Assembly: GCA_049974095.1 (NCBI GenBank)
Contig: JBMFJD010000001.1
Coordinates: forward strand, 30,001-62,000
Reading direction: 5' to 3'
Source: Nanopusillaceae archaeon
GTDB lineage: Archaea > Nanobdellota > Nanobdellia > Nanobdellales > Nanobdellaceae
DNA: 32,000 nucleotides
Both the position numbers and the translations under genes were made by a program. Below, in pieces: positions 3,597 through 28,399 of this stretch. Positions within the stretch are counted from its first letter, which is position 1, and every line of letters begins with the position of its first letter. Under the pieces are notes generated by a model. That model saw only the letters and a program-made list of their open reading frames with translations, was not told where the DNA came from and searched no databases.

Positions 3597-5088
<1,492 letters not shown>

Positions 5089-5139: not shown

Positions 5140-6348
5140 ATGTTTGAGATAAAGTATAGAGATGGAGCTGGAAGAATTGGAATACTGAAGTACAAAAATA
5201 AAAAAATAGAAACTCCTATTTTGTTACCTGTAATAAATCCAAATAATTCAATTTTACCTATAGAGGATATAAAAAAATATAAAATAAGTGCAATAATGAC
5301 AAATGCCTATATTTTATATAAAAAGAAAGTAAATGAAGATATACATAAATATTTGAATTTTAATGGGATAATAGAAACTGATTCTGGATCATATCAAATA
5401 TTACATTATAAAAAGGAATTAGAAATAAATAATAAAGAAATTATAGAATATCAAATAAGAATTAATTCTGATATTATTAATGTATTAGATTTACCAACAG
5501 ATATTGATAAATCTAGAGAAGAAGCTGAAAAAGAATTAAATATAACTGTTGAGAGAATAAAGGAAGGTATTGAAATAAAAGGAGATAAATTAATAAATGG
5601 AGCAATACAGGGAGGAGTATATGTTGACTTAAGAAAAAAAGCAGCAGAAATTGTAAGAAATTTAAATGTAGATATATTTGCAATTGGAACAATTGTTCCC
5701 TATATGATAAATTATAAATTTGATAAATTATTTGAACTAATTATTGAACCAAAAATTATTTTACCATTTAATAAACCGGCTCATTTATTTGGAATGGGTC
5801 ATACATTAACATTACCTTTATCTATTTATCTTGGAGGAGATATATTCGATTCTGCTTCATATGTTTTATTTGCAAAAGATAAAAGAATATTAACACCATA
5901 TGGAACATTTAGATTTGATGAAACAAAAAATATTTATTTAGAAACAAAAAATAATTTATATCACTTAGAAGAATTAAAAGATCTAGATGAAAAAGAATTA
6001 ATAAAGATAATTGCAGAACATAATTTATATACATTAATAAAAGAAATAGAAATAATAAAAGATGCTATTAAGAATCAATATTTAACTGATTTAGTTCTAA
6101 TTAAAGCACATGTTCATTATTCAATATATAAAGCAACAAAAAAAATATTAGAGAAATATTATGAATATCTAAAAAATTTAGAACCTGTAAGAAAAAGATC
6201 TGGAATTTTCTATGGAGGAGAATTGAATGAAATTAGAGTAGATGTAAAAAGAGCAATTGAAAGATTAAACGAAAGAGTTGATAAAAAAGATATTGAAGAA
6301 ATATATGATTATGTTTATCCTTTTAATTCATTTAAAAATATAAAATGA
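5140..6348 (+). CDS. tgtA: Archaeosine tRNA-guanine transglycosylase, catalytic domain only (truncated or split ArcTGT)
   Basis: ETPILLPVINP, IETDSGSYQ, LFGMGHTLTLPLSIYLGGDIFDSASY and AEHNLY motifs of TGT are present. At 402 aa it is far shorter than the ~580 aa I recall for full-length ArcTGT, and no C2/PUA domains are visible. Confidence 0.85.
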   Translation: MFEIKYRDGAGRIGILKYKNKKIETPILLPVINPNNSILPIEDIKKYKISAIMTNAYILYKKKVNEDIHKYLNFNGIIETDSGSYQILHYKKELEINNKEIIEYQIRINSDIINVLDLPTDIDKSREEAEKELNITVERIKEGIEIKGDKLINGAIQGGVYVDLRKKAAEIVRNLNVDIFAIGTIVPYMINYKFDKLFELIIEPKIILPFNKPAHLFGMGHTLTLPLSIYLGGDIFDSASYVLFAKDKRILTPYGTFRFDETKNIYLETKNNLYHLEELKDLDEKELIKIIAEHNLYTLIKEIEIIKDAIKNQYLTDLVLIKAHVHYSIYKATKKILEKYYEYLKNLEPVRKRSGIFYGGELNEIRVDVKRAIERLNERVDKKDIEEIYDYVYPFNSFKNIK

Positions 6349-6842
6349 ACCTATATGAAAAATATACAAAGAGAGAAATAAGATTATCAAAAAAATTTAA
6401 GAAAAATTCTGAGATAAATATAATAGCTTTAGAAAGTAATACAAAAGATTTTGCTTTAAATATAATAAAAAATATAGATAAAAAATTTAATATGAATTTT
6501 AAAATAAATTTAAAAACATATAAAAAGATTGAAGAAATAGAATTAACTAAAGATAGTATATTAATTTTGCCAATTGAAGGAATTTTCTTATCTTTTTTAA
6601 TTTATAATTATAATAAAGATGAAAAATATAAATATTTTATAAAAAAGAAAAATGAATTTTTTTATAATATAGGATATAATATCTCAGAATATTATATATC
6701 AAAAAATATTAATAAAGAACCTTTCTTTTTTACAGAATACAAAGATTTATTGAAATTTATTTATGATATTATTTCTTTAAAGGAAAAGTATGTTTTTGGA
6801 TTAAAAAATATTTTAGATTATTTTTCAAAATATTATTTATAA
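6345..6842 (+). CDS. Hypothetical basic protein, translationally coupled to tgtA (ATGA overlap)
   Basis: 165-aa ORF in an otherwise tightly packed region. Its start overlaps the tgtA stop by 4 nt. I recognise no motif. Confidence 0.5.
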   Translation: MNLYEKYTKREIRLSKKFKKNSEINIIALESNTKDFALNIIKNIDKKFNMNFKINLKTYKKIEEIELTKDSILILPIEGIFLSFLIYNYNKDEKYKYFIKKKNEFFYNIGYNISEYYISKNINKEPFFFTEYKDLLKFIYDIISLKEKYVFGLKNILDYFSKYYL

Positions 6843-11044: not shown

Positions 11045-13989
<2,945 letters not shown>

Positions 13990-14107: not shown

Positions 14108-15790
14108 ATGAACAAAAACTCTACAAAAAAAGATGAAAATTTCTCCGAATGGTATAATGAAATAGTTAGAAAAACAAATATAATTGATGATAGATATCCT
14201 GTAAAAGGAATGCCTGTATATTTCTCTTACGGATATATAATGATAAGAAATATTTTTAAAAAATTAGAAGAAGAATTGGATAAAAATGAATTTGGACCAT
14301 ATTGGTTTCCAATATTAATACCCTATGATATATTTAAAAAAGAAAGTGAACATATTAAAGGATTTGAAAAAGAGGTATTTTATGTTACCCCAGCAAAGCC
14401 AATTGAAGAAGAAAAAGAAATAAAATATGTTCTAAGACCTACCTCAGAAACAGAAATGTATTATATGTTTTCTTTATGGATTAAATCATATAGAGATCTT
14501 CCTTTATTAACATATATGACTAATACAATGTATAGATATGAAACAAAGGCTACAAAACCATTAATAAGAGGAAGAGAGGTACTATGGAATGAAGCACATA
14601 CTGTACATAAAGATTTAGATGATGCTGAAAGGATGATAAGGAAATCTATGGAGATATATTCAGAAATATTCTGGGATAATCTAAGTATACCACACATGTG
14701 GGTAAAAAGACCAGATTGGGATAAATTTGCTGGAGCAGATTATACCTTAGCTGCAGAAACAATAATGCCTGATGGAAGATTTTTACAAATTGGTACTACA
14801 CATTTATTAGGAAGAAACTTCTCAAAAGCATTTAATATTATATTTGAAGATGATCATCCTTTTGCAAAAATAGATAAAAATAAATTTGAAGCTTTTGATG
14901 AAAGCGGAAATAAATATGAAATTGAAATAAATAACAATAAAGTAACAATAAAATATTATGAGAAAGAAGAAATAAAACATGTATATGAATCTGAAATAAA
15001 TTTCAATGGAGAAATCAGTGAAGATAACAAAGAATTAATAAATATACTATATAATAAAATAAAAGAATTTTTTGGAGATGTAAAATTAAAAAAAGAAAAA
15101 TTTGTATGGCAAACATCTTTTGGATTATCAATGAGAACATTAGCTGCAATAATTGGAATACATGGAGATGATAAAGGATTAATATTACCATTTGATCTAG
15201 CACCAATTCAAGTAATTATAATACCAATATATTATTCTGAAGAAGAAAAAAACAAAGTATTAGAATATTGTGAAAAAATATATAATAAATTAAAAAATTA
15301 TTATAGAGTAAAAATTGATAAAGATGAAACAAAGAGTCCTGGATGGAAATTTAATCAATATGAAATGTTAGGAGTACCATTGAGGATATCTATAGGTAAA
15401 AAAGAAATTGAAGAAAATTATGTAACAATATCTGTAAGAAAATATAATGAAAAATCACAAAATTATTATATTGAGCTTGAAAAAATAGATGAAGAAATCA
15501 AAAAAATAACTGAACGCTATGAAAAAGAATTAAAGGAAAGAGCAAAAAAATATTTTGAAAATAAAATAATTAAAACAGAAAATATAAAAGATATTGAAGA
15601 TAATTTAGAAAAAGGTTTTGTATTTAAAGTACCATTTTGTATGAGTGAAGATTGTGCTGAAGAAGCAAAGAAAAAATATAATATTGATATAAGAGGTACT
15701 GATATAGAACCAGAAAATGCAAATAATAAAAAATGTATATTTTGTGGAAGAGAAGCAAAATATTTTGTATATGCGGGAAGATCATACTAG
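14108..15790 (+). CDS. proS: Prolyl-tRNA synthetase, archaeal/eukaryotic type, with an insertion of about 80 aa
   Basis: FSEWYNEI...YPVKGM, LRPTSET, RGREVLWNEAHT, FLQIGTTHLLGRNFSKAF, QTSFGLSMR, HGDDKGLILP, and a Cys-rich C-terminal domain ending ...YAGRSY. Confidence 0.9.
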   Translation: MNKNSTKKDENFSEWYNEIVRKTNIIDDRYPVKGMPVYFSYGYIMIRNIFKKLEEELDKNEFGPYWFPILIPYDIFKKESEHIKGFEKEVFYVTPAKPIEEEKEIKYVLRPTSETEMYYMFSLWIKSYRDLPLLTYMTNTMYRYETKATKPLIRGREVLWNEAHTVHKDLDDAERMIRKSMEIYSEIFWDNLSIPHMWVKRPDWDKFAGADYTLAAETIMPDGRFLQIGTTHLLGRNFSKAFNIIFEDDHPFAKIDKNKFEAFDESGNKYEIEINNNKVTIKYYEKEEIKHVYESEINFNGEISEDNKELINILYNKIKEFFGDVKLKKEKFVWQTSFGLSMRTLAAIIGIHGDDKGLILPFDLAPIQVIIIPIYYSEEEKNKVLEYCEKIYNKLKNYYRVKIDKDETKSPGWKFNQYEMLGVPLRISIGKKEIEENYVTISVRKYNEKSQNYYIELEKIDEEIKKITERYEKELKERAKKYFENKIIKTENIKDIEDNLEKGFVFKVPFCMSEDCAEEAKKKYNIDIRGTDIEPENANNKKCIFCGREAKYFVYAGRSY

Positions 15791-16022
15791 GTGGCCGTAG
15801 GCCGCTTTTAGTATATATCTTTCTCAGCGGTATACCTTGTACCGCCAGGACGCAATTCTCAAGGTACATACCATCTCTCCAGGTTTATCTGGAGTTACCT
15901 CCAGATATTTACCTTTCATCTTCATCAATGATATGTCCTATATTTCTTTTTGCGTTGCCAGGAATTTCTCCCTCCGGGTCTCCCCGGTGGCTTAACGGTA
16001 AGCGGACCTTCCTACGGCCACC
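15790..16022 (-). ncRNA. Structured 233-nt ncRNA; best guess is a reduced RNase P RNA (identity uncertain)
   Basis: A GC-rich island in AT-rich DNA with 12-nt perfectly complementary termini. There are two GNRA-capped perfect hairpins when read on the minus strand, CR-I/CR-IV/CR-V-like blocks, and a TATA-like box 22-29 nt upstream on the minus strand (16044-16051). Confidence applies to it being an RNA gene; for the RNase P identity it is ~0.45. Confidence 0.75.
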
Positions 16023-16054
16023 TTTTTTATTTTTATCTTTTAAATATATAAGTT

Positions 16055-16216
16055 ATGTCTGATCAACAAGCACCATTATTTACATATTTGGGATTATATA
16101 AATTTGGAAAGGAAAAATCAAAAATTAAATTAAATAAGAGAAATTTAATACTATTTGTTATTATTTTTGCGGCAATAATATATCTAATTAATCTATTATC
16201 ATCATGTCTATTCTAA
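16055..16216 (+). CDS. Small (53 aa) single-pass membrane protein, putative
   Basis: My translation is MSDQQAPLFTYLGLYKFGKEKSKIKLNKRNLILFVIIFAAIIYLINLLSSCLF*. It overlaps the next ORF start by 13 nt and is below the ORF-track cutoff. Confidence 0.35.
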   Translation: MSDQQAPLFTYLGLYKFGKEKSKIKLNKRNLILFVIIFAAIIYLINLLSSCLF

Positions 16217-16653: not shown

Positions 16654-17411
16654 TGGCTAGAGTTATAACAATATCTTCTGGAAAAGGCGGGGTTGGAAAA
16701 ACTTTTTTTTCAATCAATTTATCAAGAGCATTATCTCTTCTAGATCTTAAAACACTATTAATAGATTACAATTTAACTACACCAAATGTTTCAATTAATC
16801 TTGGATTAGGACAAGAAAAGAATAATATACACAAATATTTGAGAGGAGAAGTAAGTATTAGAAAATGTATAAAAAAATATAAAGAAAATTTTCATATAAT
16901 ACCTGGAAGCTTGAATATTGAAGATTTAATAGATATTTCTGCAGAGAGACTAAATGAAGGAGTTCTAAAATTATATAATGATTTTGATTATATAATAATA
17001 GATTCTGCTGCTGGAATTGGGAAAGAAGCGTTAGAATCATTAAAATCTGCTGAAGAAGTATTAATTATAACAAATGTAGAAAAATCATCATTATTGGACG
17101 CTTATAGATTAATAAAAGTATTAGGAAAATTAGATATAAAAGTTTTTGGGGTTGTAATAAATAAAGTAAAAAAGAAAAATATTGATTACATAAAAATTGA
17201 AAGATTTTTGGGAAAAGAAATTGTTGGAATTATCCATTATGATGAAAACGTACAAAAATCTATGGATTATGGGATTCCTTTATTAGATTATGATATTAAC
17301 TCAATAGCCTCAAAAGATATTTTAGAAATTGCTAAAGAAATAAGTGGAAAAGAAATAAAAGAAAAAGAAAGTAAATTAAATAAAATATTAAGCATATTTA
17401 AATGGAGATAG
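16653..17411 (+). CDS. MinD/ParA-family P-loop ATPase
   Basis: Deviant Walker A SSGKGGVGKT, Walker B-like YIIIDSAAG, and about 250 aa in size. Confidence 0.85.
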   Translation: MARVITISSGKGGVGKTFFSINLSRALSLLDLKTLLIDYNLTTPNVSINLGLGQEKNNIHKYLRGEVSIRKCIKKYKENFHIIPGSLNIEDLIDISAERLNEGVLKLYNDFDYIIIDSAAGIGKEALESLKSAEEVLIITNVEKSSLLDAYRLIKVLGKLDIKVFGVVINKVKKKNIDYIKIERFLGKEIVGIIHYDENVQKSMDYGIPLLDYDINSIASKDILEIAKEISGKEIKEKESKLNKILSIFKWR

Positions 17412-17671
17412 ATTTTGAATTAGAAAAAATATATGAAATATTAGATAGAAAAAGATATAAGAAAATATTATTACAATTTCCAGATGGATTAAAACCATAT
17501 TCTAAAGAAATATATGATAAATTAAGAGAAAAATATAAAGATTTGGAAATATATATTTGGTTTGGAACAGATTTCGGTGGTTGTGATATACCAATTTATT
17601 TAGATAAATATGGATTCGATTTAATAATTCATTTTGGACATGATAAATTTTATAAATTAGAAATAAAATGA
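17402..17671 (+). CDS. Diphthamide synthase Dph2, N-terminal domain fragment only (89 aa)
   Basis: YKKILLQFPDGLKPYSKEIYDKL...FGGCDIP...GFDLIIHFGHDKF matches the first ~90 residues of archaeal Dph2 (..vLiQsPEGL...YGACD...cDalIHlGHs), which I recall as ~340 aa. The ORF stops right after that. Confidence 0.7.
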   Translation: MEIDFELEKIYEILDRKRYKKILLQFPDGLKPYSKEIYDKLREKYKDLEIYIWFGTDFGGCDIPIYLDKYGFDLIIHFGHDKFYKLEIK

Positions 17672-28064: not shown

Positions 28065-28399
28065 ACTCTTCTAAATTCTATATAATTGTTTGTTATATTT
28101 TGACCAAAAGAAAATACAGTACCATTACTTAAATTTTCATAAATTATCTCATATAGTCTATTAATTCCTAAATTATCTAATATAGAAGAATTAAAATCTT
28201 CAGACGTTAAATTACATATAGGATTAGAATATTCCTCTGTTATTTTTTTAATAATTATCCTTCCATCGATAAATTTGTTAAAAAAATCTGAATATTTGAA
28301 ATTAACATTATAAATATTTGATACTTCCTCCATTAATAATAAAGTTATAAAAAAAATTATAACTACTATCAATAATAGTTCAAAAAATCTATCCAGCAT
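28016..28399 (-). CDS. Pilin-like small secreted/anchored glycoprotein, paralog 1
   Basis: MLDRFFELLLIVVIIFFITLLL N-terminus. Sequons NLT, NSS, NLS, NGT, NIT. C-terminal motif VCYYDGSLYLVEV. Confidence 0.55.
   Translation of the reverse strand: MLDRFFELLLIVVIIFFITLLLMEEVSNIYNVNFKYSDFFNKFIDGRIIIKKITEEYSNPICNLTSEDFNSSILDNLGINRLYEIIYENLSNGTVFSFGQNITNNYIEFRRVCYYDGSLYLVEVLIS

Follow-up and report, generated by a model that had tools for sequence, protein, structure and literature searches.

We analysed a stretch of 32,000 nucleotides (nt) from the genome of a Nanopusillaceae archaeon (assembly GCA_049974095.1, contig JBMFJD010000001.1, positions 30,001 to 62,000), referred to throughout as the window. 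Scanning the whole window with Rfam at curated thresholds returned five features: the 16S and 23S ribosomal RNA (rRNA) genes, two transfer RNA (tRNA) genes and, on the minus strand at 15789–16023, a 235-nt gene for the RNA of ribonuclease P (RNase P), the enzyme that trims tRNA precursors. This gene lies between the convergent gene for prolyl-tRNA synthetase (ProRS, proS) and a small divergent open reading frame (ORF). To convert an RNA position n to its window coordinate, it is subtracted from 16024 (16024 − n); the parts of the RNA are listed in Table 1. A preliminary description of the same DNA, made from its letters, had proposed a reduced RNase P RNA at this place, and every string that it cited was found at its position. 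We consider it highly probable that the locus encodes the catalytic RNA subunit of RNase P of a nanoarchaeon of the Nanopusillus/Nanobdella group, with a fold that lacks helices P2 and P3; its catalytic activity, like its expression and its protein partners, is predicted from the sequence.

Identification of the RNase P RNA gene

The Rfam model of archaeal RNase P RNA (RF00373) matches the locus end to end, model positions 1–288 covering window positions 15789–16023, at 86.6 bits against a gathering threshold of 84 (E = 7.5e-23). This covariance-model search had been proposed in the preliminary description, and its outcome bears out the identity suggested there. The gene forms a G+C island between the proS stop codon and the small ORF, as had been noted, with 0.45 G+C compared to 0.18–0.28 in the flanks. 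The minus-strand RNA has a minimum free energy (MFE) of −96.5 kcal/mol, and the mean of 200 dinucleotide-preserving shuffles is −59.0 (z = −8.45); none of the 200 was as stable as the RNA gene. The gene termini are complementary (GGTGGCCGTAGG at 15790–15801 and CCTACGGCCACC at 16011–16022).

The minus strand is the sense strand, as had been suspected. The RF00373 match is confined to this strand, and the choice is supported by many G·U cells in the pair count over 30 aligned sequences described below, which would be A·C mismatches on the plus strand (dozens of cells), as well as by GNRA loops that occur on the minus strand only. Two hairpins pointed out earlier, CCGGG-GAGA-CCCGG at 15974–15987 and UAUCUGGAG-GUAA-CUCCAGAUA at 15886–15907, are both present on this strand. 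A plus-strand feature, either a structured 3′ untranslated region or a terminator of proS, would account for an element that starts at the proS stop codon and whose helices are complementary on either strand. The strand-specific match, the G·U cells, the GNRA loops and a conserved TATA motif upstream on the minus strand make such a feature vanishingly improbable.

Orthologues and covariation

Relatives of the window, members of a hot-spring nanoarchaeal group, were found by a ProRS protein scan with one genome per species. The closest is Nanoarchaeota archaeon YN1 (83% ProRS identity), followed by Candidatus (Ca.) Nanopusillus acidilobi (73%), several Ca. Nanopusillus metagenome-assembled genomes (65–73%), Ca. 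Nanobsidianus stetteri Nst1 and AB-777_F03 (71%), Nanobdella aerobiophila MJ1 (69%) and Nanoarchaeum equitans (49%); the window belongs to a different species from Nst1. We recovered 29 further distinct orthologues of the RNA; metagenome contigs contributed 17 of them and genomes 12. In each of these genome loci, identified with nhmmer, the RNA lies directly downstream of proS on the opposite strand and is convergent with the proS stop codon; carriers include Nst1, N. acidilobi, N. aerobiophila MJ1 and YN1. With GAARNATATATACTAAANGNNGCYTA, a 26-nt pattern taken from the invariant 3′ end of the RNA, 21 metagenome contigs were matched, and the full RNA was present in 21 of 21. The 30 distinct sequences are 232–236 nt long, and L090 (a metagenome orthologue) and CTOTU25739 are the most divergent of them.

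Most orthologues fall below the Rfam threshold. RF00373 scores range from 56.8 to 92.4 bits (E = 2.7e-13 to 2e-24), most of them between 56.8 and 74 bits, including Nst1 (L012, 71.0), N. acidilobi (L005, 68.2) and Nanobdella MJ1 (L008, 63.9); the metagenome copies L006, L082, L086 and L091 also lie in this sub-threshold range, where E-values are 1e-13 to 1e-18. Annotation at the gathering threshold would therefore miss the RNAs of Nst1, N. acidilobi and Nanobdella. No such RNA was detected by nhmmer at the proS locus of N. equitans or of the next-closest "Woesearchaeota" contig, and our own covariance model, R1, run on 67 loci, found nothing in N. equitans (L013), Woesearchaeota or Pacearchaeota; as these loci span only ~20 kilobases (kb) around proS, absence from other DPANN loci says little. 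In Nitrososphaerales (Nitrosocosmicus) loci L068, L070, L072, L073, L075–L077 and L079, R1 retrieved only canonical RNase P RNAs, which carry a 38-nt P15–P17 insert and share the strand of proS, ~1.5 kb downstream of it (for example L075:12954–13203). A loose linkage of proS and RNase P RNA is thus also present in this distant archaeal order.

Pairing was counted on the alignment of the 30 distinct sequences (63 pairs, 1887 cells). Standard pairs make up 99.2% of cells, and compensatory changes occur in 38 of the 63 pairs. None of 500 shuffles matched the observed values on any measure, and sliding the 3′ partners by 1–3 columns lowered pairing to 33–44%. The covariation pattern is consistent across YN1, Nanobdella, CTOTU25739 and L090. 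While the helices vary, G12–A15, A184, A186–G189, A200–A203 and A206–A217 are invariant; for the two last segments, which lie in the J15/4 linker, invariance amid varying helices indicates strong constraint on the linker.

These counts bear on whether the RNA might be a decaying, non-functional relic, in which the loss of P2/P3 and of P15–P17 is damage on the way to the N. equitans state. That relative lacks RNase P, and R1 finds nothing at its proS locus; the Nst1 complex was described in 2013 as having undergone "partial degradation" (PMC3655853), and one orthologue (L090) is without the bulged uridine of P4. Yet the helices are kept in 30 sequences from several genera, the single-stranded core segments are invariant, the length is fixed and the promoter motif is conserved. 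Compensatory changes, an invariant core, fixed length and a kept promoter are not the pattern of a pseudogene, and we regard a relic as very unlikely.

The fold lacks P2 and P3

The terminal helix, extended in the window by pairs 1–235 and 2–234, is P1 and not P2 on grounds of topology, because its 3′ strand lies 3′ of the P4 3′ strand. P1 leads directly into UAGGAAGGUCC, and only AUAU lies between conserved regions (CR) IV and V, leaving no nucleotides for P2/P3. In the RF00373 alignment, 25 columns comprising the P2 5′ strand and all of P3 are deleted after P1, and the 6 columns of the P2 3′ strand are deleted as well. The earlier remark that nothing corresponding to P2/P3 separates P1 from P4 therefore holds, and this absence is common to all 30 sequences. 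With P2 absent, P4 is nested within P1 and is an ordinary helix rather than a pseudoknot; P1, P4 and P5 would form one continuous nested stack. A further 37 model positions are deleted at P15–P17, leaving GG-N4-5-CC, and L15, P16, P17 and P6 are absent. A P6-like pairing of J5/7 with the AU-rich linker was considered and set aside, as it showed no covariation in the 30-sequence alignment.

All five regions CR-I to CR-V are present in canonical order in the RF00373 alignment. CR-I reads GGAAGGUCC, with U18 as the bulged uridine. The CR-I and CR-V assignments made previously, the latter on ACUAAAAGCGGCCUAC at 15797–15812, agree with this alignment. The former candidate for CR-IV, AGAUGAAAG (15913–15921, RNA 103–111), has to be abandoned: it sits in the P12 internal loop as part of a repeated GAUGAA K-turn-like motif, and the alignment places CR-IV at CGCUGAGAAAGAU, with the core AGAAAGAU. 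The true CR-IV is 4 nt upstream of CR-V, which removes the concern that the two regions were ~100 nt apart; CR-IV, AUAU and the 5′ part of CR-V all lie on the J15/4 linker. The short CR consensus strings used for comparison, including AG-N4-AU for CR-IV, are ones that we presume to represent the family.

Within the catalytic half, the compensatory change in P5 is from A-U to G-C and is seen in Nanobdella and YN1. RF00373 also aligns the CAAG conserved in J5/15, which the window has as ACAAG, and the 37-position deletion comes after it. What remains of P15 is a stub of 2 base pairs (bp; 188–189/194–195) around a 4–5-nt loop, and A186, A187, G188, G189, C194 and C195 are invariant in the 30 sequences. 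Since the pairs of the P15 stub and of P10 never vary, covariation neither supports nor contradicts them. A hairpin noted previously, GCGGUA-N7-UACCGC, does occur at 15827–15845 but is not part of the conserved fold: it has broken cells and a single compensatory change, compared to changes in all pairs of P7, and its nucleotides belong to P5 and P7, both of them helices that show covariation.

The catalytic half is thus reduced to P1-P4-P5, CR-IV and a P15 stub, while the specificity half (P7–P12) is complete. The P2–P3 arm and the P4 pseudoknot are treated as part of the universal core of cellular RNase P. From this core the RNA has P1 and P10/11, P4 with a bulged U, the CR-I to CR-V order and a score above the RF00373 threshold; it has neither P2/P3 between P1 and P4 nor the pseudoknot.

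Table 1. Parts of the RNase P RNA and other features of the window. Pair counts refer to the 30-sequence alignment.
Feature	Window position	RNA position	Strand	Basis and remarks
P1 5′ strand	16015–16021	3–9 (GUGGCCG)	−	100% of cells paired; 2/7 pairs compensatory
P1 3′ strand	15791–15797	227–233 (CGGCCAC)	−	directly after the opposite-strand proS stop
J1/4, CR-I and P4 5′ strand	16001–16014	10–23 (UAGGAAGGUCCGCU)	−	model aligns to AGGAAAgUCCcCC
CR-V and P4 3′ strand	15798–15812	212–226 (ACUAAAAGCGGCCUA)	−	Rfam alignment, covariation
P4		15–17, 19–23/218–225, U18 bulged	−	98.8% of cells paired; 4/8 pairs compensatory
P5	15997–16000/15840–15843	24–27/181–184	−	100% paired; 1/4 compensatory
Specificity domain	15844–15991	33–180	−	P7–P12, aligned to Rfam consensus
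P7		33–36/177–180	−	4/4 pairs compensatory
P8		37–40/47–50 (element 37–50)	−	100% paired; 2/4 compensatory
P9		51–55/60–64 (element 51–64)	−	GNRA loop; 4/5 compensatory
P10		65–66/175–176	−	100% paired; pairs invariant
P11		70–73/170–173	−	100% paired; 4/4 compensatory
CR-II		in J11/12, contains AGAAA	−	Rfam alignment
CR-III		in J12/11, contains UGAGA	−	Rfam alignment
P12	15863–15938	86–161	−	basal stem, internal loop, P12b, distal hairpin
P12 base and stem		86–87, 89–97/149–157, 160–161	−	7/11 compensatory
P12b (3 bp)		110–112/141–143	−	2/3 compensatory
P12c (9-bp distal hairpin)		117–125/130–138	−	GNRA loop GUAA; 8/9 compensatory
J5/15 and P15 stub	15829–15839	C185 A186 A187; G188 G189/C194 C195	−	C185 A186 A187 at "A anchor" position
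CR-IV	15817–15824	200–207 (AGAAAGAU)	−	within J15/4; Rfam aligns CGCUGAGAAAGAU to CR-IV region CGCuuAGucGAAU
J15/4 linker (22 nt, single-stranded)	15807–15828	196–217	−	stands in for J15/2, P2 3′ strand and J2/4
TATA-box-like TTATATAT	16044–16051	−28 to −21 from position 1	−	
proS, prolyl-tRNA synthetase	14108–15790		+	Pfam tRNA-synt_2b, HGTP_anticodon, ProRS-C_1
53-amino-acid ORF, divergent from RNA gene	16055–16216		+	NCBIfam Sec61beta, E = 7.5e-4, 19.2 bits, below the cutoff of 55
16S rRNA	3597–5088		+	Rfam scan of the window
23S rRNA	11050–13984		−	Rfam scan of the window
Two tRNAs				Rfam scan of the window

P12 carries K-turn-like motifs

The internal loop of P12 consists of GAU-GA-A-GAU-GA-A (RNA 98–109, 15915–15926) facing G-GA-GA-G (RNA 144–149, 15875–15880). 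By inspection, it would fit two consecutive kink-turn (K-turn) units on the same strand, with a C helix, a 3-nt bulge and tandem G·A/A·G pairs. The short non-canonical (NC) helix of the first unit would abut the bulge of the second, an arrangement that resembles a double K-turn, in which the NC helix of the first turn is the C helix of the second (PMC5499556). In P12 of euryarchaeal RNase P RNAs, a double K-turn binds two copies of L7Ae (PMC5499556). The distal unit (G107 A108/G145 A146) is invariant in the 30 sequences. In Nanobdella aerobiophila (L008:11669–11900), the proximal G101 A102/G147 A148 are replaced by two A-U Watson–Crick pairs and the distal unit is unchanged, which predicts one fewer L7Ae site in that RNA; one bound L7Ae copy would be expected there, and two where both motifs are present. 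The terminal loops are GNRA in all sequences, L12 being GUAA or GCAA and L9 being GAAA, GAGA or GGAA.

The P4 register and other points of tension

The preliminary description had proposed a P4 with a bulged U and a covariation analysis of it; that analysis, run here on the 30 sequences, supports the helix (Table 1). The inner five pairs (19–23/218–222) hold three of the four covarying positions: 20/221 changes from C-G to U-A, 21/220 from G-C to A-U in YN1, and 23/218 from U-A to C-G in CTOTU25739 and L090. The outer pairs A15-U225, G16-C224 and G17-C223 have no broken cells and one compensatory A16-U224. The same description had worried that P4 might be an alternative register of the terminal helix. 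P4 as a whole covaries and to that extent the worry is answered; for the outer 3 bp it stands. AGG occurs twice in UAGGAAGG, so the outer part of P4 competes with a 4-bp extension of P1 (U10-A226, A11-U225, G12-C224, G13-C223), and this competing extended-P1 conformer is real.

Several observations speak against our interpretation of the locus, and the first group concerns this register. Nearest-neighbour energies favour the P1 extension in 30 of 30 sequences by 0.4–5 kcal/mol (5 kcal/mol in the window and most sequences, 0.4–0.9 in the three with a U·U mismatch), and the MFE, centroid and RNAalifold structures all pick the extended-P1 register. The distinction between the two registers rests on the one compensatory change and three U·U mismatches. 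Second, the 30 sequences are closely related, with a mean column identity of 91%, so the covariation counts overstate the number of independent events. Third, P4 is not uniform: L090:8757–8992 has an A (GGAAGGACC) instead of U at the bulge, RNA 18, with the rest of P4 intact, which may be genuine or an assembly error, and the metagenome orthologues L082, L084 and L097 carry a C·A mismatch at pair 20/221 (GGUCCGC with GCAGCC), which looks intermediate between C-G and U-A, the states of other sequences. Fourth, no RNase P protein gene was found among the ~40 ORFs of the window compared with Pfam and NCBIfam, and none of its unannotated small ORFs (hydrophobic or pilin-like proteins, a probable Sec61-beta, a helical protein) is Pop5-like.

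Taken at face value, the energies describe an RNA with a terminal helix of 11–13 bp (P1 plus UAGG/CCUA) and the CR-I AAGGU looped out, in which the outer part of P4 is absent or is one state of a switch. Pairing over columns 3–13 with 227–237 is 99.1%, in keeping with such a helix. The added pairs, however, show no compensatory change and have three U·U mismatches at position 11 (Nanobdella, CTOTU25739 and L090), and the outer pairs of the P4 register are unbroken. The inner five P4 pairs are common to both registers. We adopt the P4 register because RF00373 aligns it as the homologue of that in all other RNase P RNAs and because it is needed for the bulged U; a long terminal helix that displaces the outer part of P4 is unlikely.

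Predicted activity and protein partners

In the cryo-electron microscopy structure of Methanocaldococcus jannaschii RNase P, CR-I, CR-IV and CR-V form the catalytic P4 motif, and two anchors measure the tRNA, one for the T-loop (CR-II/CR-III) and one an adenosine of the 3-nt L5-15 linker. P1 contacts P9, Pop5 is positioned on the P2/P3 junction and clamps CR-IV, and Rpp30 contacts P2–P3 of both RNAs in the dimer (PMC6565675). The M. jannaschii enzyme dimerises at the P2–P3 arm. Pop5-Rpp30 raises the cleavage rate ~60-fold (PMC4919917). The nanoarchaeal RNA retains both tRNA anchors (C185 A186 A187 and CR-II/III), P1, L9, P4 and all CRs; what it has lost is exactly the P2–P3 platform.

For Nst1, a short RNase P RNA was found with Infernal, together with p21, p29 and a divergent p30 (PMC3655853). 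In a later survey, RPP21, RPP29, RPP30 and L7Ae were identified in Nst1 whereas POP5 was not found, and the authors suggested that the catalytic domain had been remodelled (PMC4919917). The loss of P2–P3, alongside the reported lack of a recognisable Pop5 and divergence of Rpp30 in Nst1, would predict a monomeric enzyme.

In the mechanism that we propose, the active site would be composed of P4 with its bulged U, built from CR-I and CR-V, and of CR-IV. Both tRNA rulers would be retained: the catalytic half has the J5/15 adenosine, and the specificity half has the T-loop region of CR-II/CR-III. The RNA-protein complex would cut the 5′ leaders of precursor tRNAs at the CR-I/CR-V junction by the two-metal mechanism that is standard in the family. 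Rpp21-Rpp29 and L7Ae would occupy the specificity domain, where the P12 K-turn-like motifs could bind L7Ae, and the catalytic domain would have been simplified together with its protein partners.

An RNase P-derived RNA could also be functional and no longer a catalyst, for example as a tRNA-binding scaffold or with another substrate, if leaders were removed by a protein enzyme or needed no removal. The lost P2/P3 is the seat of Pop5-Rpp30, so its absence could weaken catalysis, and the catalytic domain is less well preserved than the specificity domain. The most conserved elements are nevertheless the catalytic ones (CR-I, CR-IV, CR-V, P4 and the J5/15 adenosines), and HARP has been reported absent from all DPANN genomes examined (PMC6380272). 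A non-catalytic role therefore seems improbable to us, and a functional RNase P, probably monomeric, is the simplest reading.

Promoter and genomic context

As described earlier, a TATA-like string, TTATATAT, lies upstream of the RNA on the minus strand. All 14 loci compared have a motif of the TTTATATA type at the same distance upstream; its spacing fits an archaeal promoter, and we take it to be the presumed promoter of the RNA gene. The RNA would be transcribed from the minus strand via this box and would end inside the 3′ end of the convergent proS, whose stop codon TAG (15788–15790) overlaps the last 2 nt of the RNA gene. In Nst1-like sequences, a T5 run is located 8–12 nt downstream of the RNA 3′ end.

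The divergent 53-amino-acid (aa) ORF is probably Sec61-beta. It has a C-terminal hydrophobic helix, and the position of its start codon is kept in 13 of 14 loci (L090 differs). The TATA-like box may be shared with this ORF; the fixed start codon, with the box between it and the RNA, suggests a shared bidirectional promoter region. ProRS itself is 560 aa, a length common to the whole nanoarchaeal group, and matches in other archaeal loci are ~470–485 codons. The extra segment, at approximately residues 250–365, lies between the catalytic core and the anticodon-binding domain and has a weak match to DUF7686.

Elsewhere in the window, the genes for 16S and 23S rRNA are not linked: they occupy opposite strands, with ~6 kb of protein genes between them (tRNA-guanine transglycosylase (TGT), S19 and genes like those of type II/IV secretion). 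A 5S rRNA was not detected anywhere in the 32 kb. At 5140–6842 (+), a 402-aa TGT with the TGT domain only overlaps by 4 nt the next ORF, of 165 aa and no family, and the two might be a split archaeosine TGT. An 89-aa ORF at 17402–17671 (+) matches the first ~58 of 302 positions of a diphthamide synthase profile (Pfam, E = 3.2e-12), in line with a split Dph2 gene, of which a case has been reported in Nst1 (PMC3655853, split-gene table). At 27400–28399 (−), three consecutive small ORFs (94, 129 and 127 aa) with hydrophobic N-termini are Asn/Tyr-rich and match no family; they may encode secreted or pilin-like proteins.

Comparison with known RNase P RNAs

As of August 2026, the classification of archaeal RNase P RNAs has three types, A, M and T (PMC13462272). 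With type A (the RF00373 consensus, for example Pyrococcus), the window RNA shares P1, P4 and its bulged U, P5, the P7–P10 cruciform including P8 and P9, P10/11, a long P12 that has K-turn-like motifs and ends in a GNRA loop, and all five CRs. It differs from type A in lacking P2, P3, the P15 loop L15, P16, P17 and the P6 pseudoknot, in its length of 235 nt compared to a 288-position consensus, and in that P4 is no pseudoknot. Type M (Methanococcales) likewise has no P6, P16, P17 or L15 loop, and has a double K-turn in P12 (PMC5499556). However, type M keeps P2/P3, which contacts Pop5 and Rpp30 (PMC6565675), and is without P8, and the window RNA is the reverse. Type T (Thermoproteaceae, Pyrobaculum) is also a natural minimisation, of ~200–250 nt and with a reduced protein set (PMC13462272), but the opposite half has shrunk: type T has a vestigial specificity domain, no Rpp21 and an intact, Pop5-Rpp30-bound catalytic domain, whereas in the window RNA P7–P12 are complete and covarying.

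Outside the archaea, the minimal mitochondrial RNAs of fungi (budding yeasts, Smittium) have a catalytic part that is essentially P1 and P4, with CR-I, CR-V and often CR-IV, and no P2/P3; they are the only other described RNase P RNAs with such a P2/P3-less catalytic part (PMC3790967). Those RNAs, in contrast to the window RNA, are without a specificity domain, organellar, dependent on the large unrelated protein Rpm2 and poorly conserved in sequence. N. equitans belongs to the same phylum and has a related ProRS, but no RNase P RNA at its proS locus (L013), and it reportedly makes leaderless tRNAs (PMC3491384, PMC3790967).

The short RNA of Nst1, which "could not be folded" in 2013 (Podar et al., PMC3655853), is an orthologue of the window RNA: it lies at the same proS-adjacent locus (L012), has the same length, aligns throughout and is also found by the archaeal Infernal model. 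A shortened RNase P RNA had thus already been reported for this lineage; it is the fold that is new. In a literature search outside subscription journals, we found no published fold or structural type for Nst1-type RNA. The P2/P3-less fold appears to be a new structural variant of a known ribozyme that fits none of types A, M and T. On balance, and with much less assurance than for the identity of the gene, we favour a wider proposal: that it is a fourth archaeal structural class beside A, M and T, a mirror image of type T; that, if the RNA is active, the P2–P3 arm and the P4 pseudoknot are dispensable in a cellular RNase P; that the enzyme is a monomer without canonical Pop5; and that it is a living intermediate between a full RNase P and the complete loss that N. 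equitans shows.

RNase P RNA counts among the two ribozymes that are universal, and its natural minimal forms show the true needs of the active site. Type T shows that the specificity half is almost discardable, and the window form suggests the same for the P2–P3 arm and the pseudoknot of the catalytic half, offering a natural test of how little catalytic half RNase P needs. If this reading is true, the complex would be monomeric, Pop5 would be lost or unrecognisably changed, and the invariant AUAUAUAC linker would assume the task of placing CR-IV and CR-V. Existing co-cultures of Nanopusillus acidilobi and Nanobdella aerobiophila make the system tractable. RNAs of the window type would document a stepwise erosion of RNase P within a phylum whose best-known member has none.

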